A DNA stretch of 49,465 nt from an uncultured Parcubacteria group bacterium (GCA_903944135.1 CAJAQL010000005.1:1-49465); one strand, 5' to 3'. Positions 1 through 10,680 are shown, counted from the first letter of the stretch. Program-made: numbers and translations. Notes: generated from the sequence alone by a model not told the origin.

Positions 1-377
1 GAACTTTATTTATTAAGGAGCCTTGCGATATAACTAAATAGGGAATGCCAAGGGGGCAATTTTGTTTAGGTGCCGTAATAATGAATGAAAACTTCTTGGG
101 CAAGCCATTTTCGGTTTTCGGAAAAGGGGTTAAAAAATGTCAGTGTGTGGATAATTTTTATACCATTTGCATAAAAAATGAGATATCATTTTCTTATGAG
201 TCCCAATAAAGAAAATTTCATTTAGATGCGAACGTGGGGTCGCAAAAGAGTGCCCTTCTGGTGGCGAGCAACTTAAGTTTTATGATATAGCCGTTATTAA
301 AAAGAAATATTATTGATCTAGAATGAAGAAGCGGAGATATTAAAAAAGTGTTGAGCAACTCTTAAGAATCTAAAAAC

Positions 378-1640
378 ATGGCACAACAAAAGATCGAGAA
401 TATTAAAGTCAGTGCATTACGATTATGGTCGGAAAATCCACGTGATCCAATAAGCCCAGAGAGCACTGACTTTGACATTATAAAACGAGCTATTAATGAT
501 AACTCTGAAGATTGGAATTTGGATAAAATGGTGAATGAGATGGGTTCTCATTACGATTTCAGTGAGATTCCTACTGTAGTATATCTCAGTGGTATACCCG
601 TTGTGTTTGATGGCAATCGCCGTGTCGCAGTGCTCAAATATCTCCAAGATAAAAAGCTCTATCTATCGCTTACGAATAAGCTTTTTCCAAAGAGCGATGG
701 TCCCAAGGAACTTTGCGAGCTGCGAGAAATACCCTGTAATGTGTGCGATAAAGATACGGCACTTACTAATATTGAAAGAAAACACGTTAATAATGGATCA
801 TGGGGAACTCTCCAGCGAGAGTACTTTTTACATCAACATCGTGGGCAGCCCAAGAGCTTATTCCTTGTTATTGAAGAGCAAACGAAACTTATTAGTACCC
901 ACCCAGATCTTAACCAGGGCTTTGTAAGAGATGAGGTTTTTACCGAGAAGAATCTCAAGGAGATTGGTTTCGGTATGCAAAACGGAAAGCTTGTTTCTGG
1001 CTATAATGACGAAGAGCAGGAAAAAATATTAGAACAGGCTGTCTTGCTTGTTGAGGATAAAGAAATAACAACTCGCAAACATAGGGGTTCATTGAAGCAG
1101 GCATTATTGGAGAAACATCCAGATAGTAAGGAAATACTTACTGTCTTTGATGGTAATAAAAAAGTTGAGATGGTGAATTGTGAATTTCCTCAGGTAGTCC
1201 GCCGAACGCAGCGCGTGACCGGTCAAGACCCTATTTTTTTTGGTAAATGCTTATCGTTAAAGCCGGGAGATGTTAATAACCTCTATCGGGATATTGTCGA
1301 TTTGTATTCCTTTTATCACAACAAAAAAAGCGGGCTTTCGAAGAGTTTTCCCGCTCTTATACGAATGTCACTTCGTTTGATTGTTGAATCGGCAGCTGTT
1401 AATGAAAAGATCGAAGATTATGTGCCTGCTCATTTCGAAGCGGCAAAGAAGGCGCTTTCTCAAGATCAAAAAACCACTCTCTCCACTCAAGAGGTGAATA
1501 CTCCAGAGAAGCTTGTTAAGCTTTTAAATATCGGTGCGCATAAATATACAGCTTCAGCAAATATGGATCAGACGATGACAATGTCTGTCATTATTGGTGT
1601 TATGCTGGAAAAGACACACCCAAAGAAGAAAAAAGGATGA
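378..1640 (+). CDS. ParB/Srx-fold (ParB-like nuclease domain) protein with about 290 aa of uncharacterised C-terminal region
   Basis: The N-terminus IKVSALRLWSENPRDPI ... VVFDGNRRVAVLKYL resembles the ParB/sulfiredoxin-fold boxes. The stop overlaps the next start (ATGA at 1637-1640). Confidence 0.6.
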   Translation: MAQQKIENIKVSALRLWSENPRDPISPESTDFDIIKRAINDNSEDWNLDKMVNEMGSHYDFSEIPTVVYLSGIPVVFDGNRRVAVLKYLQDKKLYLSLTNKLFPKSDGPKELCELREIPCNVCDKDTALTNIERKHVNNGSWGTLQREYFLHQHRGQPKSLFLVIEEQTKLISTHPDLNQGFVRDEVFTEKNLKEIGFGMQNGKLVSGYNDEEQEKILEQAVLLVEDKEITTRKHRGSLKQALLEKHPDSKEILTVFDGNKKVEMVNCEFPQVVRRTQRVTGQDPIFFGKCLSLKPGDVNNLYRDIVDLYSFYHNKKSGLSKSFPALIRMSLRLIVESAAVNEKIEDYVPAHFEAAKKALSQDQKTTLSTQEVNTPEKLVKLLNIGAHKYTASANMDQTMTMSVIIGVMLEKTHPKKKKG

Positions 1641-2497
1641 GATTTTATTCACCACTGAGATATCCTGGGGGGAAAAATAGACTCGCAAAGTTTATTGCCT
1701 TGCTTTGCGAGACGAATAGGATAACGGACCAAAAGGGACATTATGTGGAGCCATATGCAGGAGGGGCTTCAGTTGCTCTACATCTGTTGTTCGAGGGTTA
1801 TGTATCAGAAGTAACAATAAACGACAGCGATAGATCTATATATGCATTTTGGCATACCGTGCTTTATGACGCTGACAAATTGATAAACAAGATTCGCTAT
1901 GCCAGGGTCAATGAAAGAACATGGCGGAAATGTAGAGAAGTGCAACAAAAGAAAGTAGAAGCGTCACTTTTTGAACTTGGTTACTCGACCTTCTTTCTTA
2001 ATCGAACGAATGTATCAGGTATTATAGACGGAGGGATGATTGGTGGTTTTAAGCAGGCCGGGGAATATAAAATAGGTTGTCGTTTCAATAAAAAAGAGTT
2101 GATTAATAGAATACGTACAATAGCTAAATATAAAGATCGGATACATCTATTCAATCTCGACGCACTCGATTTGATAAGGCAAATCGAAAAGAATGATTCG
2201 CCAAATATTATCTTCTACTTCGATCCTCCATATTACTTAAAAGGTCCCTCGCTATATTTAAATAGTTATGACTACTCTGATCATGAAAAAGTGCGTGAAG
2301 CTATCGGTGGGATAGGAAATGCGAAGTGGCTTATTTCGTATGATGCGGCGAAGGAGATAAAGAGTCTCTATCGTGGATACAGAAAAATTGAATATTCACT
2401 TCTTCATACAGCTCGCACTGCTAGAATGGGGGAAGAGATACTCTTTCTTAGCCCTAATATGTTCATCCCCCAGATTACTGACCCAACTAAGGTATAA
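1637..2497 (+). CDS. N6-adenine DNA methyltransferase, Dam/D12 class
   Basis: Contains RYPGGKNRLAKFI, VEPYAGGASV (AdoMet-binding motif) and FYFDPPY (DPPY catalytic motif). Confidence 0.85.
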   Translation: MRFYSPLRYPGGKNRLAKFIALLCETNRITDQKGHYVEPYAGGASVALHLLFEGYVSEVTINDSDRSIYAFWHTVLYDADKLINKIRYARVNERTWRKCREVQQKKVEASLFELGYSTFFLNRTNVSGIIDGGMIGGFKQAGEYKIGCRFNKKELINRIRTIAKYKDRIHLFNLDALDLIRQIEKNDSPNIIFYFDPPYYLKGPSLYLNSYDYSDHEKVREAIGGIGNAKWLISYDAAKEIKSLYRGYRKIEYSLLHTARTARMGEEILFLSPNMFIPQITDPTKV

Positions 2498-2770
2498 ATT
2501 ATATTCTCTAGGGAGCGAAAGTATCGACAAATATCAAAATAACCAAAATCCGCATTTTATTGAAAAACCGCGGAAAATAATCCCGAAATAGATATATCTA
2601 TCATCTCTTGTTTTGCCTCCAAATTAAGACTATTCGAGGTTTTTTATAAGAAAAAAGAAAACATAAGCCAAGATGTACCCTACGAGGTATGTCTCCTTTC
2701 CGTCTTTAATTAAAATCTATATACGCATCTCAAATTTCATATCTCCCAAAAAGGAATCCCAACCCCTTAT

Positions 2771-3139
2771 TTAGCCGAATATCCCAAAGAGTTTTTTCGT
2801 TTTTCCGTCCTTGTCTAAATAGTTATAGATTGATTCCCCAAATTTCAACTGAAACGCCGTTCGTATCATTGCCAGTTTTTCTTGAACTAATTTTTCTGAG
2901 CCATCAATCATAGCTTGGAATAGCAGAGCGCTTATTCCGGGAGGGAGCAGGTTGCTTTCTAGCCTATCCTCCATCTGTTCTTTGGTTTTTTCCCAATCTT
3001 TGACATAGACACTATGGGTCTTGGCCATCTGGAAGGTTATGTCGCAATTTTTAATGAGATCTGCGGCTTGGGTCATTTCTGCCAGCTCCGCCTGCGCCAG
3101 AAAGGCTTTTAGATATTCTTGTTCTTTTTCTGAAAGCAT
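2771..3139 (-). CDS. hypothetical protein (122 aa)
   Basis: Clean ORF in the AT-rich island with no recognisable motif. Confidence 0.4.
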   Translation of the reverse strand: MLSEKEQEYLKAFLAQAELAEMTQAADLIKNCDITFQMAKTHSVYVKDWEKTKEQMEDRLESNLLPPGISALLFQAMIDGSEKLVQEKLAMIRTAFQLKFGESIYNYLDKDGKTKKLFGIFG

Positions 3140-3229
3140 GGATTTATCTTTGTAGTAGTTTTTATCGTTTTGTGTACGGAATAGATATTCTTCTTCCGTA
3201 TTATCTTTCTGAGAAAATTCCTATATTTT

Positions 3230-3748
3230 TCATTGAGGTGTCGTATTAGAGAGATGAGTTGCAGAGAATGGGCACTGTTTCCTTGTATACAGTTCAAACA
3301 AGAAAGCAGAGTTTTCGTTATAGCCAGAAGCACGAAGATTATCTATTATATTTTCTGGCAATTTGCACTCCGCATAGTTAATTCCCTTATCTACGTCGGT
3401 TGTTGTGCTTGTTATAGCTCCATTGGAATCTATATTAGCAACATACTCTCCGGCTGGAATATCACTAGGAGCACCATCTGATCGAACTGCTGTCTGCTGA
3501 TTTGTCGTTGTGCTATTTTCTATAGTAACCGATTGAGGGCTGTTTTCTACGGAATTGCTTTGATTATTTAGTAAAGGGGTAACGAGGTCACTTGATGTCG
3601 CTTGCTGTAATGCGGTGTCGGCGATCGACATCGCTTGGCTGGCAAAAGACAATGCCTGTTGTTTTAGCTGTGCATTTGCTTCAAGCCCTGGCGCGGTGAG
3701 CAGGCTCAATGCCATTTGAAGTACGAGAATAACAGATGCAAAATTCAT
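3230..3748 (-). CDS. hypothetical secreted protein (172 aa)
   Basis: Signal-peptide-like N-terminus MNFASVILVLQMALSLLTAPGLEA followed by a Ser/Thr/Asn-rich region. Confidence 0.45.
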   Translation of the reverse strand: MNFASVILVLQMALSLLTAPGLEANAQLKQQALSFASQAMSIADTALQQATSSDLVTPLLNNQSNSVENSPQSVTIENSTTTNQQTAVRSDGAPSDIPAGEYVANIDSNGAITSTTTDVDKGINYAECKLPENIIDNLRASGYNENSAFLFELYTRKQCPFSATHLSNTTPQ

Positions 3749-4038
3749 AGATTTGAAATGTTTATTTAATTTTGAAAGTGCTGGCTAGAATCGGCCTTTT
3801 TAAACACAAAGCTCCCAGCCAGATTCATATACCTTTCGGTGTACGGCCTACAACGGCGCTCTGACTAGGAGCTTTCTACGTTGTAGGACTTTGCGCCATG
3901 CCCCGATTGCTCAAGGTTTAGGCGACTCTATTAAGTTGTAATTTAATGTTGCCACGAAAAGGTTTTAAAAGCCAATACTTCTAGAGAGGAAATTTAAAGA
4001 GATAGGGTAAAATCATTAAAAAGTTAGGGAAATGGCTC

Positions 4039-4067
4039 TTGACTTTTATCAGAAAGTGTGGTACAAT
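4039..4067 (+). promoter_or_regulatory. sigma70-type promoter for the rightward island operon
   Basis: TTGACT (4039-4044), 17-nt spacer, TGgTACAAT (extended -10, TACAAT at 4062-4067). Confidence 0.55.
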
Positions 4068-4192
4068 GCAAATGCGGGTTAAAAGACGGGTTAACCTGAG
4101 TTTCTACAATATTTCAGCCTAATTATCGAGGGGGGCGATCTTTGGGATGTATTATTAACCAAAGGTCGCTTTTTAGTACTTTTAAAAAATTA

Positions 4193-4495
4193 ATGAAGTC
4201 CATTAAAATAAGATTTCAATATTTTGCCAAGGCAAAAAATGGGTGGAGCACTTATACTTGTTTTGCGTACGCAATCCAAGGTATGCATTTCAGTCGGTAT
4301 AGTGTCCGTGAGTGGTTTAATAAATTAGTCGATTTAGAGGATTATCTACAAAAAGATAAAAAAGGCGTCCTAGACTTTTTAATGATGCTAAATAATAGCC
4401 CCAGGAGCCAACTTTTAAGGGGCAAAACGATGCTAGACGCGATTATTTTATCGCAGACGGGTAAATCCTCATTTTCAAACAAAAAGGTCAAATAA
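4193..4495 (+). CDS. hypothetical protein
   Basis: The ORF opens at TTG 4142 and the first ATG is at 4193. It lies downstream of the 4039-4067 promoter. No recognisable motif. Confidence 0.35.
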   Translation: MKSIKIRFQYFAKAKNGWSTYTCFAYAIQGMHFSRYSVREWFNKLVDLEDYLQKDKKGVLDFLMMLNNSPRSQLLRGKTMLDAIILSQTGKSSFSNKKVK

Positions 4496-4562
4496 AAGAG
4501 AATTTTTATAAAAAATAAGTAGAGATGCGTTTTGCAATTTTTACATTGAGAGTCAGTTTAAT

Positions 4563-4808
4563 ATGAGGGCGATAGACAAAAAATTTTCAGTAGAAAAATT
4601 AAAGGAAATAGATTCAAAATTAGCAGATCTTTCAGAATCCGAAATTATAGAAATTCGTGACTCTCTTTACGATCTGGGCCAACTTATCTTTGATGATTGG
4701 CTGGAAAATGGGAGCGGTTCCAAATATCCGGTTAGGTCATTACCAATATTGTGGAATGATAATAAAATTAAGCTATGCCAATTACGAGCACTCAGACAAA
4801 GGGAATAA
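4563..4808 (+). CDS. hypothetical small acidic protein, overlaps the recombinase start
   Basis: 81-aa ORF whose 3' end overlaps the start of the recombinase gene by 34 nt. An accessory or directionality role is speculative only. Confidence 0.35.
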   Translation: MRAIDKKFSVEKLKEIDSKLADLSESEIIEIRDSLYDLGQLIFDDWLENGSGSKYPVRSLPILWNDNKIKLCQLRALRQRE

Positions 4809-6169
4809 TTTATTGCCGCGTTTCTTCCAAGGAACAGGTTGAGGGAACGAGCTTGGATATGCAAGAACGGGTGTGTCGTGAATGGGCCGGTAAAAGGGGC
4901 ATTGAGGTTCTAGGGGTATTTGTGGATAAGGGTGAATCTGCAAAGACAGCGAACCGGCCCGAATTTTTGAAGGCGATTGGTTTCTGCTCTAAAAAGAAAA
5001 ACAGCGTCAATTTTTTCATTGTCTACAAGGTGGATCGCTTTGCAAGAAATCAGAATGACCACGTAACAGTTCGTGAGGTATTGAAACGGGTCGGCACGGA
5101 ATTACGTTCAGTTACTGAACCGATCAATGAGGAACCGATGGGTAAGGCAATGGAAGGTATGATGTCTGTCTTTGCAGAACTCGACAATAATCTGCGGGCC
5201 GAGCGATGCAAGAATGGCATGATGGAACGAGTGAAAGAGGGTGTTTGGGTATGGCCCGCTCCGATCGGTTACTATCGGCCGCGCAAAGGTGGGAATATAG
5301 CTCCCGATCCGACAACGAAGGACTACATAACCCTTATTTTCCAAGAATGGGCCAAGGGAACGCATACCTATCGTTCCTTGGCTCAATTCATGGCTGAGCG
5401 TGGTTTCCGGACGCATCATGGCAGGAAGCCGTTTTCTCAATTTATCGAGAGCATTATCAGAAACGAGGTGTATTGCGGTTATATTAATTCGTGGGGTATG
5501 CGCGTGAAAGGTACCGGCACATTCGAGCCAATCGTCAGTGAAGAATTATTCTTACGGTGCCAGCACAAGAACAAGACCCTTATGGGGCCGCGAAAAACAG
5601 GGAATCCCGATTTTCCATTGCGACGAACAATTTGCTTAGGTTGCATGGGTTCTCTTACGGCAAGCTATTCACACGGGAATGGTGGCGCATATCCGTATTA
5701 CCATCATCATGCGCATCACAATTGCTCACTGGCGAGGTTCATTCCGAAAGAAACTTTTGAGCAGTTGTTTTTGAAATATCTCCACGGGATCTCGCCTGAT
5801 AAGAAATATGAAAAATGGTTCAAGGCGATCATGCTCGACATCTGGCAGTCGAATTTCAAGAAGTTTGACGAGATGAACGGAACCGTCCAGAAAGAGATCG
5901 GTCAGCTTGAACAGGAGCGGCAGAAAATCTTTGAGGCCCAGCGTCGCAGCGTATATAGCGACGAAGAGTTTTTAGAGCAGAAGAATCTCATCAATCAGAG
6001 GATCAACGAGAAAACTCAGCTTTTGGTCGATAACCGTATCGAAGAATTCAATATGGATGAAGCGTTAACGTATTGCTTCAACTTCGTGCGTGATAGTGCG
6101 AAAACGTGGCTTCGGTTGAAGTACGAGCCAAGGATTCGGTTCCAAAAAAATATCTGTCCCGAAAAATAG
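4775..6169 (+). CDS. large serine recombinase (resolvase/invertase catalytic domain, recombinase domain, Cys/His-rich zinc ribbon, coiled coil)
   Basis: IIYCRVSSKEQ catalytic Ser motif, VDRFARN, Cys/His cluster CLGCMG...HHHAHHNC, and C-terminal coiled-coil-like QKEIGQLEQERQKIFEAQ. Confidence 0.9.
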   Translation: MPITSTQTKGIIYCRVSSKEQVEGTSLDMQERVCREWAGKRGIEVLGVFVDKGESAKTANRPEFLKAIGFCSKKKNSVNFFIVYKVDRFARNQNDHVTVREVLKRVGTELRSVTEPINEEPMGKAMEGMMSVFAELDNNLRAERCKNGMMERVKEGVWVWPAPIGYYRPRKGGNIAPDPTTKDYITLIFQEWAKGTHTYRSLAQFMAERGFRTHHGRKPFSQFIESIIRNEVYCGYINSWGMRVKGTGTFEPIVSEELFLRCQHKNKTLMGPRKTGNPDFPLRRTICLGCMGSLTASYSHGNGGAYPYYHHHAHHNCSLARFIPKETFEQLFLKYLHGISPDKKYEKWFKAIMLDIWQSNFKKFDEMNGTVQKEIGQLEQERQKIFEAQRRSVYSDEEFLEQKNLINQRINEKTQLLVDNRIEEFNMDEALTYCFNFVRDSAKTWLRLKYEPRIRFQKNICPEK

Positions 6170-6254
6170 ACGTTCGACGGAGAAAAATTTGGAACCACGA
6201 AATTGTCTAAGATTTATGCCCTTAATCAGGAATATGACGGTGAAAAATCCAATC

Positions 6255-6329
6255 TGGTGGACCGGAGGGGAGTCGGACCCCTGACCTCCTCATTGCAAAT
6301 GAGGCGTTCTACCACTGAACTACCGGCCC
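6255..6329 (-). tRNA. tRNA-Ala (anticodon UGC), CCA encoded
   Basis: Reverse complement GGGCCGGTAGTTCAGTGGTAGAACGCCTCATTTGCAATGAGGAGGTCAGGGGTCCGACTCCCCTCCGGTCCACCA folds as a cloverleaf. It has the G3:U70 Ala identity pair and anticodon loop TTTGCAA. Confidence 0.9.
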
Positions 6330-6341
6330 GAAAACAAATCT

Positions 6342-6370
6342 ATTGTAGCTTGACGCGTTAAAAATGCAAA
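6342..6370 (-). promoter_or_regulatory. candidate promoter of tRNA-Ala
   Basis: On the minus strand: TTTGCA, 17 nt, TACAAT, ending about 12 nt before tRNA position 1. Confidence 0.4.
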
Positions 6371-6449
6371 GTATAAAAGAGTTTTATGGGATCCGTTGTT
6401 GCAAAATTCGTCTTACTGCCGGGGTGAATTTTGAGGCGGACGCAAGAAC

Positions 6450-6478
6450 TTGCTTAAAATGGAAAATGGCATTATAAT
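6450..6478 (+). promoter_or_regulatory. promoter of rpmE (leaderless geometry)
   Basis: TTGCTT (6450-6455), 17-nt spacer, TATAAT (6473-6478), then 7 nt to ATG 6486. Confidence 0.55.
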
Positions 6479-6485
6479 AAGCCTT

Positions 6486-6737
6486 ATGAAAAAAGATATC
6501 CATCCGACCTATTTCCCTGAAGCAAAAGTGATCTGTGCTTGCGGCAATTCGTTTACCGTAGGGGCGACCAAGCCCGAGATCCGCGTTGAGATCTGCGCAA
6601 AGTGCCATCCGTTCTATACCGGCGAAGAGAAATTGCTCGACGTCGCAGGACGGGTCGAGAAGTTCAAGGCGCGCCGCGAAAAGGCATCCGCCACTCCGAA
6701 GAAGGTGAAGAAAGTGCGCGCGAAAAAAACAGAATAA
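6486..6737 (+). CDS. rpmE: 50S ribosomal protein L31 (Zn-binding type)
   Basis: [23 protein letters not shown]...[13 protein letters not shown]. The ORF opens at 6450 but the conserved N-terminus starts at 6486. Confidence 0.9.
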
Positions 6738-6751
6738 TCCTGAATCTGAAG

Positions 6752-6790
6752 AACGTCCTCAAGCATCCGATGCTCCGGGGGCGTTTTTTT
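6752..6790 (+). terminator. intrinsic terminator after rpmE
   Basis: AACGTCC...GGGCGTT stem enclosing the AGCATC/GATGCT palindrome, followed by a T7 run. Confidence 0.5.
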
Positions 6791-6804
6791 ATACCGGTTA
6801 TTTC

Positions 6805-6813
6805 TGCTATAAT
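6805..6813 (+). promoter_or_regulatory. extended -10 box 6 nt upstream of the pilB GTG
   Basis: TGcTATAAT, then gagaac, then GTG at 6820. Confidence 0.5.
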
Positions 6814-6819
6814 GAGAAC

Positions 6820-8541
6820 GTGAAACTTCCTATTTCTTCCGATCAGTTGAAGGCAGTGCTTATCTCCGAGGGGCTTGTGACGGCGGATGTTTTTGATCGT
6901 CTTTTGGAAGAGGCCCAGAGAAAGGGGCAGGACATCGTCGACGTCCTTGTCTCGAACCATATTGCCGAAAAGGGGTATCTCGACGATGCGGTGGCTAAAG
7001 CGCTTGGTGTTCCAAGGATCACGCTTGCGGCGAGTTCCATTGATAAGGACGTTTTGAAACTGCTCTCTGAGGGAGTTGCCCGCGATCGCCAGGCGGTGAT
7101 CTTTCGCCGCGAAGAGGATGGCACGTTCGATGTGGCCATGGCGAACCCTTCGGATCTTGAAACCATCGAATTTCTCACGACGCGCTTGAAGGCCCGCGTG
7201 AAACCGTTCCTTGCGACCCAGGATGATCTGAACCAGGGTTTTTCGGTGTATGGCTACGAGGTCGAGCAGGATTTCAAGAAGATCATCGAGGATAATATAC
7301 GGAACTCTCTCGCGAACCAGTTGGGAAAAAATATGACGGACGTGGCGTCCCAGCTTCCCGTGATGGGCGTGGTGGAAAATATTCTTTCCTATGCCATGGC
7401 GTCGCGCGCATCAGACATCCATATCGAAATACTTGAAGATGCCACGTTCATCCGTTATCGCATTGACGGCATTCTTTATGAAGTGATGTCGATCACAAAG
7501 GCGATCCATCCGGCGATCGTCGCGCGCATCAAGCTTCTCGCGGGACTGAAGATCGACGAGCACTACGCGCCGCAGGATGGGCGGTTCCGCTATCAGGTCG
7601 GCAATCAGACGATCGATATCCGTGTTTCCGTCATTCCTACGTTTTACGGCGAAAAAGTGGAAATGCGTCTTCTCGAATCATCGCAGAAGCCGTTGTCCCT
7701 CGAGGAGATCGGCATGTCGCCCGAGGCCGTGAAGGTCGTCTCGGAAAATCTCAAGAGATCCTACGGCATGATCTTATCCTGCGGTCCGACCGGTTCCGGA
7801 AAATCGACGACGCTATATGCTTTGATGAACATCCTGAACCGTCCGCAGGTCAATGTCACCACGATCGAAGACCCGATCGAATACAATATGCGCTATGTGA
7901 ACCAGACGCAGATCAATCCTCAGGCCGGCATCACGTTCGCTTCGGGTCTCCGTTCGCTCCTGCGTCAGGACCCGAACGTCATCATGGTCGGCGAGATCCG
8001 CGATGCGGAAACGGCTGATATCTCCGTGCAGGCGGCCCTCACCGGCCACTTGATCCTTTCGTCGCTCCACACGAACGATGCGCCGACCGCCGTGCCGCGC
8101 TTCTTCGATCTGAACGTGCCGCCGTATCTTGTCGCTTCCGTTTTGAGCTTGGTGGTCGCCCAACGTTTGGTGCGAAAGATCTGTCCCTCGTGCATCTATT
8201 CTTATGATGCCGATGAGCATATCGCTTCGGTCATCAAATCCCAGCGCCGCGAACTCGGCATTTCCGACGAAGAAAGCATCACTATCCCGAAAACATTCTA
8301 TCGCGGGAAAGGATGTTCCGTGTGCGGCATGACCGGCTATATCGGCCGCAGCGGTATCTTTGAGGTGCTTGAAGTGAACGATGAAGTGAAAAAAACGATT
8401 GACAGCGATCATTTCGACATCGATGAATTGCGTGCTGAAGCGCGCCGAAACGGCATGGTGACCATGTTCGAGGACGGACTTCGAAAAGTTGAGCTTGCCG
8501 AGACGACGATCGACGAGGTTCTCCGCGTGATCCGTGAATAA
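6820..8541 (+). CDS. pilB: type IV pilus assembly ATPase PilB (GspE family)
   Basis: T2SSE N-terminal-like region, Walker A GPTGSGKSTT, MVGEIRD, LTGHLILSSLHTND, and a CxxC...CxxC tetracysteine motif. Confidence 0.9.
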   Translation: MKLPISSDQLKAVLISEGLVTADVFDRLLEEAQRKGQDIVDVLVSNHIAEKGYLDDAVAKALGVPRITLAASSIDKDVLKLLSEGVARDRQAVIFRREEDGTFDVAMANPSDLETIEFLTTRLKARVKPFLATQDDLNQGFSVYGYEVEQDFKKIIEDNIRNSLANQLGKNMTDVASQLPVMGVVENILSYAMASRASDIHIEILEDATFIRYRIDGILYEVMSITKAIHPAIVARIKLLAGLKIDEHYAPQDGRFRYQVGNQTIDIRVSVIPTFYGEKVEMRLLESSQKPLSLEEIGMSPEAVKVVSENLKRSYGMILSCGPTGSGKSTTLYALMNILNRPQVNVTTIEDPIEYNMRYVNQTQINPQAGITFASGLRSLLRQDPNVIMVGEIRDAETADISVQAALTGHLILSSLHTNDAPTAVPRFFDLNVPPYLVASVLSLVVAQRLVRKICPSCIYSYDADEHIASVIKSQRRELGISDEESITIPKTFYRGKGCSVCGMTGYIGRSGIFEVLEVNDEVKKTIDSDHFDIDELRAEARRNGMVTMFEDGLRKVELAETTIDEVLRVIRE

Positions 8542-8543
8542 TA

Positions 8544-8599
8544 GAATCTATCTCAAAAAGTCCCCACGATATCCAGATGCCTGTTTTTGAGATAGGTTC
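8544..8599. repeat. inverted repeat of the CCTATCTCAAAAA family
   Basis: GAATCTATCTCAAAAA ... TTTTTGAGATAGGTTC flank 24 nt, directly after the pilB stop. Confidence 0.7.
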
Positions 8600-8664
8600 T
8601 AGTGTTATAATACTGAAGTATTCCGGAGTTACCTCGTTTGCAACATTAGAACGCTCATATATTT

Positions 8665-9879
8665 ATGCTTTACCATTATCGCGCGGTTGATGAAGGAGGG
8701 GCGGTCATAGAAGGCGAAGTTGACGCGGAGAACCTGCAGGCTGCTTTGCAGCTTATCTCCCAGAAGAACCTCCGTCCCATTTCCATGGATCCCGTCAAAA
8801 GGGAGAAGCAGGGATCGCTTGGGGGATTTTTCAGTTCCCGGATCACGGTTGGGGATAAGGTTTTCCTTACGAAATATCTCGCCTTGATGCTTCGCGTGGG
8901 AACCGATCTCTTGTCGGCGGTCAATATTCTCATTGCGGATGCCGATAAGCCTGCGATGAAGAATTTTCTCATTGAGGTGCGCGAAAACCTCACGCGCGGC
9001 GAACCGTTTTATAAAACATTCGGACAATATCCCAAGGTGTTCTCGGCGACTTTTGTGAGCCTCGTGAAAGCGGCCGAGGCATCCGGAAACCTGCAGAAAA
9101 CGTTCGAGGATCTTAACGTGTCGTTGACTTCGGATGCGGACCTGCAGAACAAGATCCGTTCAGCGCTCATTTATCCGGTCATATTGCTTGGCATGGCGGG
9201 TGCCATCACGATATTCCTGGTCACCTTTGCCCTGCCGAAGGTGGCGGGAGTCTTTACGGAAAGCAATATCACGCCGCCGCTTTTTTCGCGGATCGTCTTC
9301 GCGGTCGGACTTTTTTTGGGGAATAACATCATCATCATCCTTACGCTCCTCTTTGCCGCGATCTTCGGTTCGGTCTTCTTTGTGCGAAAAACGGAAACCG
9401 GCAAACGGGCCGTTGATGCGTTCCTTACCCATATGCCGGGCATCAAAAATATCTATCGCGATCTGTCGATCCAGCGGATGGCGTCAACGATGAGCTCGCT
9501 TATGAAAGCCGGATTGCCTATCGTGCAGACGATCACGATTGCGGCCGATACGGTACCGATCCGCGAATTCCGCTATGCGCTTCTCAGGATCGCGAACGAA
9601 GGACTTTCAAAGGGGCTTACGATCGGAGAGGCGTTCCGGCGCGAGACCATCTTGCCGCAGTCGGTGACCAGCTTGATCGCAATCTCGGAACGGGCGGGCC
9701 ATATCGAAGAAGTTCTCGGAACGCTCGGCGATTTCTATACCTCGAATATCGATGCAAGCATCGCGACGGCGGTGGCGCTCATTGAACCGGTCATGCTGCT
9801 CATCATGGGCGCGCTCGTCGGACTCATTGCGCTTTCCATCATCGTGCCGATCTATCAAATGTCGTCATCGGCGTTCTAA
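8665..9879 (+). CDS. pilC: type IV pilus platform protein PilC (GspF family)
   Basis: Two GspF-type repeats with three membrane segments. N-terminus YRAVDEGGAVIEGEVDAENLQAALQLISQKNLRPI is typical of PilC. Confidence 0.9.
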   Translation: MLYHYRAVDEGGAVIEGEVDAENLQAALQLISQKNLRPISMDPVKREKQGSLGGFFSSRITVGDKVFLTKYLALMLRVGTDLLSAVNILIADADKPAMKNFLIEVRENLTRGEPFYKTFGQYPKVFSATFVSLVKAAEASGNLQKTFEDLNVSLTSDADLQNKIRSALIYPVILLGMAGAITIFLVTFALPKVAGVFTESNITPPLFSRIVFAVGLFLGNNIIIILTLLFAAIFGSVFFVRKTETGKRAVDAFLTHMPGIKNIYRDLSIQRMASTMSSLMKAGLPIVQTITIAADTVPIREFRYALLRIANEGLSKGLTIGEAFRRETILPQSVTSLIAISERAGHIEEVLGTLGDFYTSNIDASIATAVALIEPVMLLIMGALVGLIALSIIVPIYQMSSSAF

Positions 9880-9881
9880 AC

Positions 9882-10391
9882 ATGGAAAAAGAGTTTTCAC
9901 GATCGTCGCCACATCGGAACAGCGGTTTTACGCTCATTGAGTTGATCGTCGTGATCGCGATCATTGGGATTATGAGCGCAATCGCATTTGTTTCGCTTAC
10001 CGGGAGGCGGGGGACGAATGATCTTACGAACACGGCGTCGCAGATCGTCGTGATCCTGCGGGAAGCAGAAAGCAGATCAATGACGCAGGCGCAGGGTGTT
10101 CCCTGGGGCGTCTATTTCGGGAATCCCACGAACACGGCACCGTTCTATGCATTGTTTTCGTCGACTTACAGCACGGCTACGGTCGCAGGATATTATCGAT
10201 TGCCGGTCACGGTCGGTTACGTCGCTTCAACCGTTCCGCAGGGAGGATCCCTTACGATCACCTTTTCGCAGATCACGGGGTTGGCTTCCTCGTCGGCCGC
10301 GGTCGGACTTTATATTCTGAACCCGCAGAAAAGCTTGACGGTCACCTCGAGCATGATATCCGTCGCGACATCGGGCGTGGTTTCTTATTAA
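9882..10391 (+). CDS. type IV pilin/pseudopilin
   Basis: Class III signal HRNSG|FTLIELIVVIAIIGIMSAIAF. The start is 2 nt after the pilC stop. Confidence 0.8.
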   Translation: MEKEFSRSSPHRNSGFTLIELIVVIAIIGIMSAIAFVSLTGRRGTNDLTNTASQIVVILREAESRSMTQAQGVPWGVYFGNPTNTAPFYALFSSTYSTATVAGYYRLPVTVGYVASTVPQGGSLTITFSQITGLASSSAAVGLYILNPQKSLTVTSSMISVATSGVVSY

Positions 10392-10430
10392 GCAATGACG
10401 AAAATTAATTTTAAAAATCTATTTCTTAAT

Positions 10431-10680
10431 CCGTCATTTCGAACGAAGCCTGCTTCGAGGTTTTCCGAGCGGCAAGGAATTCCTTTTTCTGTCGTCCCCG
10501 CCCCTCAACAGACTCGGGATAAACTCCGGCGGGGGATCCATGCTTCCGATCTTTTGCGTAAAGCACGGGTCCTTCAGCCAAGCCGGAGGATGACAGGAAT
10601 AAACATCGATTCCCGCTGGAACCTGTCTTCCGCACCCGCCCGTGCGGGTACAAGCTCCGGCCTACGCGGGGATGACGAGC
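10431..10680. repeat. cluster of GC-rich palindromic repeat units (degenerate type II plus extra hairpin units)
   Basis: Includes CTGTCGTCCCCGCC..CGGCGGGGGATCCATGCTTCC..AAAGCACGGG..GGAGGATGACAGG and CGCGGGGATGACGAG. The cluster lies inside the long ORF that opens at 10395. Confidence 0.75.

Follow-up and report, generated by a model that had tools for sequence, protein, structure and literature searches.

A foreign island at a tRNA-Ala gene of a Parcubacteria bacterium, and a family of large serine recombinases that appear to target tRNA ends through a site inside their own gene

Genomic islands of the P4, pSAM2 and SLP1 type integrate site-specifically at the 3′ end of a tRNA or tmRNA gene, keep that gene functional and have their integrase gene beside it. 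Only integrases that are tyrosine recombinases are known to choose such targets; those of the serine family are not known to do so (PMC4383910). The serine integrases of phages and of integrative and conjugative elements (ICEs), among them SPbeta SprA, Bxb1, PhiC31, Listeria A118/LI and TP901-1, have a Resolvase domain with the serine, a Recombinase domain and a zinc ribbon with an embedded long coiled coil, in that order, and their attachment (att) sites share a short core only, with no long direct repeat. Archaeal integrases of the SSV1 type are tyrosine recombinases with attP within the int gene, such that integration splits the gene into two large parts and inactivates it. Here we analyse 49,465 nucleotides of an uncultured Parcubacteria group bacterium, in what follows called the window (contig C5 of the source assembly, bases 1-49465). 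Its first 6256 bases are the right-hand part of a foreign integrated island whose border with the chromosome falls precisely on the 3′ end of a tRNA-Ala gene, and the last gene of the island encodes a large serine recombinase (LSR). This LSR belongs to a large family, found in Patescibacteria, that appears from comparative sequence analysis to target tRNA ends by way of a recombination site inside its own gene.

The locus resembles each of these systems in part. Like the tyrosine-family islands it is site-specific at a tRNA 3′ end, with the gene kept functional and the integrase gene adjacent, but the enzyme is of an unrelated family, with no Phage_integrase domain, and the crossover would fall at the discriminator and CCA end with ∼6–10 shared bases instead of a displaced tRNA fragment of tens of bases. 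Related elements have the short att core of the phage and ICE serine integrases, and the locus has their domain order; it differs from them in its target (tRNA or tmRNA genes at their extreme 3′ end, as opposed to protein-coding or intergenic sites), in an attP that apparently lies inside the 3′ coding end of the integrase so that the C-terminal helix would be swapped on integration, in its Patescibacteria hosts and in a conserved companion gene of ∼60–80 codons directly upstream. As in the SSV1 type the attachment site would be inside the integrase gene, which integration thus partitions; here, however, only the last ∼30–40 codons would be exchanged, with the catalytic and DNA-binding domains left in one piece. 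The remark of the initial annotation that a tRNA target is unusual for a serine recombinase agrees with the published view (PMC4383910). Our literature searches found no account of serine integrases that target tRNAs, nor of an LSR gene with attP inside it; a mention in TIGER 2020 (PMC7192596) is possible.

The source assembly (G000) comprises 856 kb in 38 contigs, is 91% complete and has a GC content of 0.50; the island lies at a contig end. Four genomes of the same genus (G001, G002, G003 and G004) served for comparison. Labels of the form L0xx denote related loci and those of the form P0xxx recombinase homologues, and evidence from the pond metagenome consists of Logan contigs, not reads.

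The target is an intact tRNA-Ala(TGC) gene on the minus strand at 6255-6329 (ARAGORN; 70.2 bits with Rfam), the sole copy in the assembly, with a body identical to that of G004. Comparison with related genomes, as suggested in the initial annotation, uncovered an empty site beside this tRNA gene in three of them: G004, G003 and G002 have tRNA-Ser(TGA), a strong hairpin, tRNA-Ala(TGC), rpmE and pilB, and no island. The source genome aligns with G004 at 96.5% nucleotide identity from position 6257 rightward, and there is no alignment leftward. At the junction the sequence is ...tttct|GTGGAC|CGG in the empty sites and ...caatcTG|GTGGAC|CGG in the window, so that an encoded CCA is completed by bases from the element, namely those at 6255-6256. 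The three empty sites also provide the presumed attB. The hexamer GTGGAC at 6257-6262 is common to the occupied site and to all three empty ones, and the crossover would lie within it. Inverted half-sites had been proposed for 6170-6260; there is no separate intergenic feature of this kind, the att core being the tRNA's own acceptor and CCA end. As a separate observation, the same tRNA-Ala(TGC) end in G001 (L040, the last 160 bases of its contig C3) is joined to unrelated DNA, with an encoded CCA as in occupied sites, and the contig stops after 81 bases.

A sharp switch in composition had been placed at about 6255. The GC and tetranucleotide profiles put the break near 4800 instead, at the start of the recombinase gene, and the true junction at 6255-6262 is known from the comparison with relatives, not from composition. 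Bases 1-4774 have a GC content of 0.383 against a genome mean of 0.501 (standard deviation 0.036, 1-kb windows), and the tetranucleotide distance of 1-4800 (0.0387) ranks second in deviance among 584 genome windows of 4.8 kb (median 0.0131, 99th percentile 0.028), so that this part looks foreign. The recombinase gene is no outlier, with a GC content of 0.465 and a position at the 68th percentile by tetranucleotides, and host DNA at 6255-6750 likewise has a GC content of only 0.44–0.49. The four same-genus genomes contain no homologue of the recombinase above 28% identity, their paralogues reaching at most 28%; in a sample of 201 genomes of the order only 8 have close homologues, and in one of 10 genomes of the family none has. 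The island had also been described as free of the host's repeat family. A host hairpin repeat (CCCGCCTGCGCGGGGAYGAC, with up to three mismatches) has 11 copies in the window where none would be expected by chance, all within 10657-48785, and no copy in 1-10656; the island does lack it, but the first 4.4 kb of host DNA lacks it equally, and the island does contain another element repeated in this genome, the LOOT RNA treated below (five copies). Domain and family profile scans, PHROG included, bear out the statement that the visible part has no phage structural or conjugation genes.

The recombinase is encoded on the plus strand at 4775-6169, its 464 codons ended by a TAG at 6167-6169. As first described, it is an LSR whose gene reads toward the tRNA 3′ end, with a Resolvase domain (PF00239, 3.8e-34, residues 11-158) and a Recombinase domain (PF07508, 1.5e-10). 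The catalytic motif Y13-C-R-V-S17-S18 is conserved in an alignment of 50 sequences, with all invariant N-terminal residues intact, and C287, C290, C317 and H310-311, invariant in the alignment, correspond to the zinc ribbon; PF13408 is present in many homologues. Sequence profiles match SprA and TP901-1. An AlphaFold2 model of the homologue P0022 (60% identical to the window's protein; mean predicted local distance difference test score, pLDDT, 81) has the N-terminal, recombinase and zinc ribbon domains and the coiled coil, whose helices span 342-390 and 395-419, and a confident C-terminal helix at 503-525; the best Foldseek matches of this model, over their full length, are the SPbeta SprA, Bxb1, PhiC31 and LI integrases. 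A database search returned 840 homologues; the 119 listed are 54–77% identical to the window's protein and nearly all 501–515 residues long, ∼40 residues longer than it. Two of the relatives bear the source names Patescibacteria group and Candidatus Kaiserbacteria, which, together with the small size of the source genome, assign that genome to the Patescibacteria.

Statistics on C-termini come from these 119 proteins plus the window's own, 120 in all. The family ends in ...RFQKxIFPEK-x-TFDGEKFGTxKLSxIYxLNQEYxGxKSxLV, and in the window the same frame goes on past the TAG with TFDGEKFGTTKLSKIYALNQEYDGEKSNLVD and runs into the tRNA, ...GEKSNLVD spanning 6255-6262. The segment 6170-6262 (plus strand) matches the family C-terminus and can be read as the former 3′ coding end of the recombinase and as the P arm of attR; in a tblastn search, the C-termini of 110 of the 120 proteins (the window's own included) match 6100-6260. 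The codons for KS-x-LV lie over the CCA and discriminator in the window (in the frame past the TAG), in 97 of the 119 listed proteins and in all seven related loci that were fetched from the order. In each of those loci the recombinase reads into a tRNA gene on the opposite strand (Glu-CTC twice, Ala-GGC, Ala-CGC, Arg-CCT and Ala-TGC twice). The same 97 of 119 end in residues read antisense from the T arm of a tRNA, such as GIEP, GFEP or RIEL. Another 12 of the 119 end instead in a conserved tail, ALVGxSWNxI..L..W..F, which follows LV; in the P0022 model, itself of the long-tailed kind, the C-terminal helix begins just after these LV codons, where the crossover would fall.

Complete relatives have both versions of the C-terminus at once. 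In L056, a contig of 699 kb from the candidate phyla radiation (CPR), the recombinase adjoins tRNA-Arg(TCT), and the coding sequence of the tail lies 4 kb upstream; attL and attR have TGGTGGCC in common, and joining the left side of attR to the right side of attL restores a long-tailed open reading frame (ORF). L079 has the same layout, with the tail 12.6 kb upstream at tRNA-Ala CGC, and so has L081, with the tail 9.2 kb upstream at tRNA-Ala TGC and a GC content of 0.37 against 0.60 outside; in both the core GTGGAC is present in attL and attR. The long-tailed homologue P0096 is flanked by element-type genes (Replic_Relax, a TraG-like coupling protein and a primase), as expected of an uninterrupted attP. 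The source genome itself carries a complete 6.9-kb sister element at its tmRNA gene (C6:63310-70220), with the core GTGGAG at both ends and a tail, VEMVEESWNQLESFILKW, stored at attL; its recombinase is only 27% identical to that of the window, and it has the same layout, a companion ORF (C6:68344-68514) and a LOOT RNA. Both in the relatives and in the sister element attP is thus laid out within the recombinase gene, and integration would exchange the C-terminus of the enzyme.

The C6 gene is one of three further LSR genes in the source genome, which has four in total; two of the three run into the tmRNA gene and a tRNA-like gene. The latter gene, which ARAGORN cannot assign, is entered by the LSR gene at C14:5711-7290, with the core GTGGAC at ∼7207; an attL for this element was not found in C14:1-5711. 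The third, at C13:1-1870, has a LOOT RNA 200 bp upstream. In G001, 0.9 Mb of sequence yields 12 LSR matches. As a side observation, L057:1347-8089 has two recombinases in series at one tRNA-Ala(TGC), the first with an intact long tail and the second with a tRNA-coded one, as a tandem array or the integration of a dimeric circle would give.

It is highly probable that the island, 6.25 kb or more in length, was inserted next to the sole tRNA-Ala(UGC) gene, at its 3′ end, by the LSR at the right edge, that this enzyme used an attP within its own gene and that the present copy carries a TAG in that gene. The first claim made for this locus, an island at a tRNA with the serine recombinase as its integrase, is supported by the empty sites, the exact junction and all seven related loci. 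We infer that this copy was integrated by the route its relatives suggest. The attP would occupy the last ∼40 codons of the gene, where the ...KS-x-L-V codons span the antisense of the tRNA discriminator and CCA end, and strand exchange would take place within the short core GTGGAC. Integration would leave the tRNA intact, now with an encoded CCA, and place the island downstream of it; the natural helical tail would be replaced by residues read antisense off the tRNA, and the tail coding sequence would move to the far attL end. The backbone of the element would consist of a promoter-like site, a 117-aa ORF, an 81-aa companion and the recombinase, and its cargo of a PD-lambda-5-like gene pair together with a LOOT RNA ahead of a secreted-protein gene.

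Several points weigh against this account. The attL with the tail coding sequence is absent from the window and from the assembly, so that only one of the two junctions of this copy is seen. The window begins at a contig end, and Logan contigs of the pond runs stop at base 17. When 12 long tails were compared with the assembly by tblastn, the C6 element was the one match above noise, and a scan of all six frames of the assembly for the tail motif found only C6:63328. Within 1-4775 there is no GTGGAC core, no inverted repeat of 6150-6275 that could be a spare copy of attP upstream of the recombinase and no C-terminus-like coding sequence on either strand; such a copy may lie in the unseen left part. 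The tRNA-Ser(TGA) gene that flanks the empty site of the relatives is missing from the assembly, and a rearrangement or a second element between tRNA-Ser and tRNA-Ala is conceivable. The left flank of G004 maps to C27:512-1372 of the source assembly, which has orthologues of its histidine kinase and response regulator; the terminal ∼300 bases of C27 hold a 17-nt fragment like the 3′ end of tRNA-Ser(TGA), then unrelated DNA, and C27 and C5 cannot be joined. A second insertion, or a deletion, may have occurred between the two tRNA genes. The host-like composition of the recombinase gene also counts here; it fits a recent arrival of the whole unit better than long residence in the lineage. Finally, the observations are sequence data throughout and come from assembled contigs. 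Separately, a second response-regulator gene of G004 is absent from the source assembly.

The nonsense codon bears on whether the element can still move. At codon 465, where the window has TAG, the closest homologue (P0002, 77% identical) and P0015 have Trp, and a change from TGG to TAG would be the simplest reading. That TAG is a sense codon here is unlikely, since code 11 reads the host genes normally and TGG stands at this place in the closest relatives. The stop precedes a short strand and helices with nearly invariant residues (alignment and P0022 model), and the protein lacks a complete family-type C-terminus, the nearly invariant F, G, F, G, L and Y after codon 465 being lost. With ∼40 conserved residues gone the recombinase is probably disabled, and the island is therefore probably unable to excise on its own; the loss of activity is read from the alignment and the model, which is a further point on the debit side of the account above.

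The element might nevertheless be fully mobile, if the TAG were an error of assembly or low coverage, a minority allele or a codon that is read through to give a full-length recombinase with a tRNA-coded tail. Depth is only about 7–9x, the YCRVSS motif and the invariant N-terminal residues are intact, and the frame past the TAG shows no other damage, being fully open and conserved, a state that argues for a change either very recent or not real. Against this, the metagenome-assembled genome (MAG) and the separate pond assembly of Logan both have the TAG and no variant is listed, although the two probably derive from the same reads; the standard code fits the host genes; and there are truncated relatives, P0003 (445 aa) and P0015 (398 aa), so that decay is common in the family. 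On balance we regard full mobility as unlikely. At 7–9x, the island, the junction and the TAG all recur in the Logan contigs of the pond metagenome, the likely source, though not independently of the MAG; these contigs show no joints, loose ends or variants, and are uninformative on excision or allele frequency. In a second pond study (run X2), 3793-5880 is represented at very low depth by four short pieces of 100% identity, from which no conclusion is drawn.

Upstream of the recombinase, and overlapping its start, lies an 81-aa ORF (4563-4808, plus strand) with homologues in five related loci, where they precede the recombinase, in three of them immediately. A profile of this protein finds 833 cluster representatives at E ≤ 0.001, mostly of 50–80 aa, and in the C6 element at the tmRNA gene it matches an ORF that precedes the recombinase by 200 bp; the 81-aa protein is a candidate accessory or directionality factor. 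The ORF before it (4142-4495, plus strand; 117 aa from a TTG start, 100 aa from the first ATG) has no family match and no homologue in the related elements. A near-consensus promoter had been claimed at 4039-4067 (plus strand). The site TTGACT-17-TACAAT with a TG extension is indeed one of three 10-of-12 matches in the scan, but the 19 promoter-like sites in 1-7000 do not exceed the 15.8 expected by chance, and the promoter is thus putative.

The left part of the visible island carries a predicted anti-phage defence pair resembling PD-lambda-5, a compacted version of restriction–modification plus abortive infection that resides on a mobile element and protects broadly (Vassallo et al. 2022, PMC9519451). 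The second gene (1637-2497, plus strand) encodes a 286-aa Dam-type N6-adenine DNA methyltransferase that matches the PADLOC model PD-Lambda-5_B over its full length (3.7e-113), as well as Pfam MethyltransfD12 (2.6e-20) and PHROG 56 (7.3e-57). The first (378-1640, plus strand), which overlaps it by 4 bases, encodes a 420-aa protein that matches PD-Lambda-5_A (5.6e-11) over residues 6-246 only and has no Pfam or NCBIfam match; it is probably the methyltransferase's effector partner. Both adjacent genes, A and B, thus match the PADLOC models, and as in PD-lambda-5 a Dam-type methyltransferase (B) is preceded by a partner (A) in a two-gene unit, whereas the A protein here matches over its N-terminal ∼245 residues only, the host belongs to the CPR and the defence function is predicted from sequence.

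An alternative is a composite island, in which a minimal recombinase element (from ∼3750 or 4000 to 6256) settled beside, or afterwards picked up, an unrelated AT-rich defence cassette (1 to ∼3750), so that the visible 6.25 kb would not have been transferred as a single unit. Only the 81-aa gene and the recombinase are common to related elements, all other genes being different; such elements can be as small as 4 kb; tandem arrays exist, as the two recombinases at a tRNA-Ala in L057 illustrate; and G001 has different DNA with an encoded CCA at the same tRNA-Ala. However, the GC content is uniformly low from 1 to ∼4800, 1-4775 has no GTGGAC core, tail-like coding sequence, second att-like junction or other mark of an internal boundary, and variable cargo on a constant recombinase module is the very pattern of the complete relatives L079 and L081. 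A composite origin is accordingly improbable. That a tyrosine integrase or some other system in the unseen left part integrated the island, with the LSR a passenger, resolvase or invertase, is very improbable: tyrosine integrases classically choose tRNA 3′ ends (PMC4383910), the island's left part is out of sight and in L056 a tyrosine-integrase gene stands just beyond the target tRNA, but the junction falls on conserved C-terminal codons of the recombinase itself, here and in seven of seven related loci with different tRNAs, the joined ends of L056 restore the recombinase frame and L079, L081 and the C6 element repeat its layout, the visible ORFs have no tyrosine-integrase (Phage_integrase) domain, and the genome has no tRNA-Ala fragment repeat besides paralogous tRNAs.

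If the LSR integrated the island through an attP in its own gene, the exchange of its C-terminus might serve as a built-in sensor of state, an idea that we put forward tentatively. The helical tail of the free circle would favour attP × attB recombination, and the tRNA-coded tail would alter activity or directionality, perhaps together with the 81-aa companion, such that the two states could be told apart with no classical directionality factor; in the present copy the nonsense codon would have broken the device and fixed the defence island next to an essential tRNA gene. An integration state that rewrites the enzyme's own C-terminus would give a new model of directionality control. Serine integrases are moreover prized for genome engineering, and a family aimed at the near-universal acceptor and CCA end of tRNAs would widen their range of targets. 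For Patescibacteria, with genomes below 1 Mb, such elements appear to be a main route of gaining defence systems, given the four LSR genes of the source genome and the twelve matches in its same-genus relative. The copy described here would stand at the end of that path, where one nonsense change in the integrase has probably immobilized the defence cargo.

Between the defence pair and the backbone, the island has a LOOT RNA (Rfam RF03000) on the minus strand at 3809-3924 (56.4 bits against a gathering threshold of 46.4, E 6.7e-9, model positions 1-121). A repeat at 3855-3946 was considered as an att site and rejected, being this RNA by its Rfam match and alignment. Directly downstream of the RNA, on the same strand, is an ORF for a 172-aa protein (3230-3748) with a signal-peptide-like N-terminus and a body rich in S, T and N; a further minus-strand ORF (2771-3139, 122 aa) has no family match. 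The source genome has five LOOT copies, all above the cut-off, the other four scoring 52–90 bits (C28:2016-2132, C13:2068-2187, C6:67202-67318 and C6:3448-3567). All five lie in AT-rich islands, three of them upstream of and divergent from LSR genes, and every copy precedes an unrelated ORF with a hydrophobic, signal-peptide-like or transmembrane-like N-terminus. This layout suggests that LOOT serves the genes for exported proteins that these elements carry, as a 5′ leader or regulatory RNA.

The copy at C6:3448-3567 belongs to a further strongly AT-rich island of the source genome (C6:1100-6500, GC content 0.33–0.40), which follows directly on tRNA-Gln(CTG) and in which no homologue of the window's recombinase was found. 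In the host part of the window, 10657-48785 is densely set with GC-rich hairpin repeats (GGATCCCCGCCTGCGCGGGGACGACAG and variants), often as convergent pairs between genes, with at least 11 copies of one 20-mer pattern.

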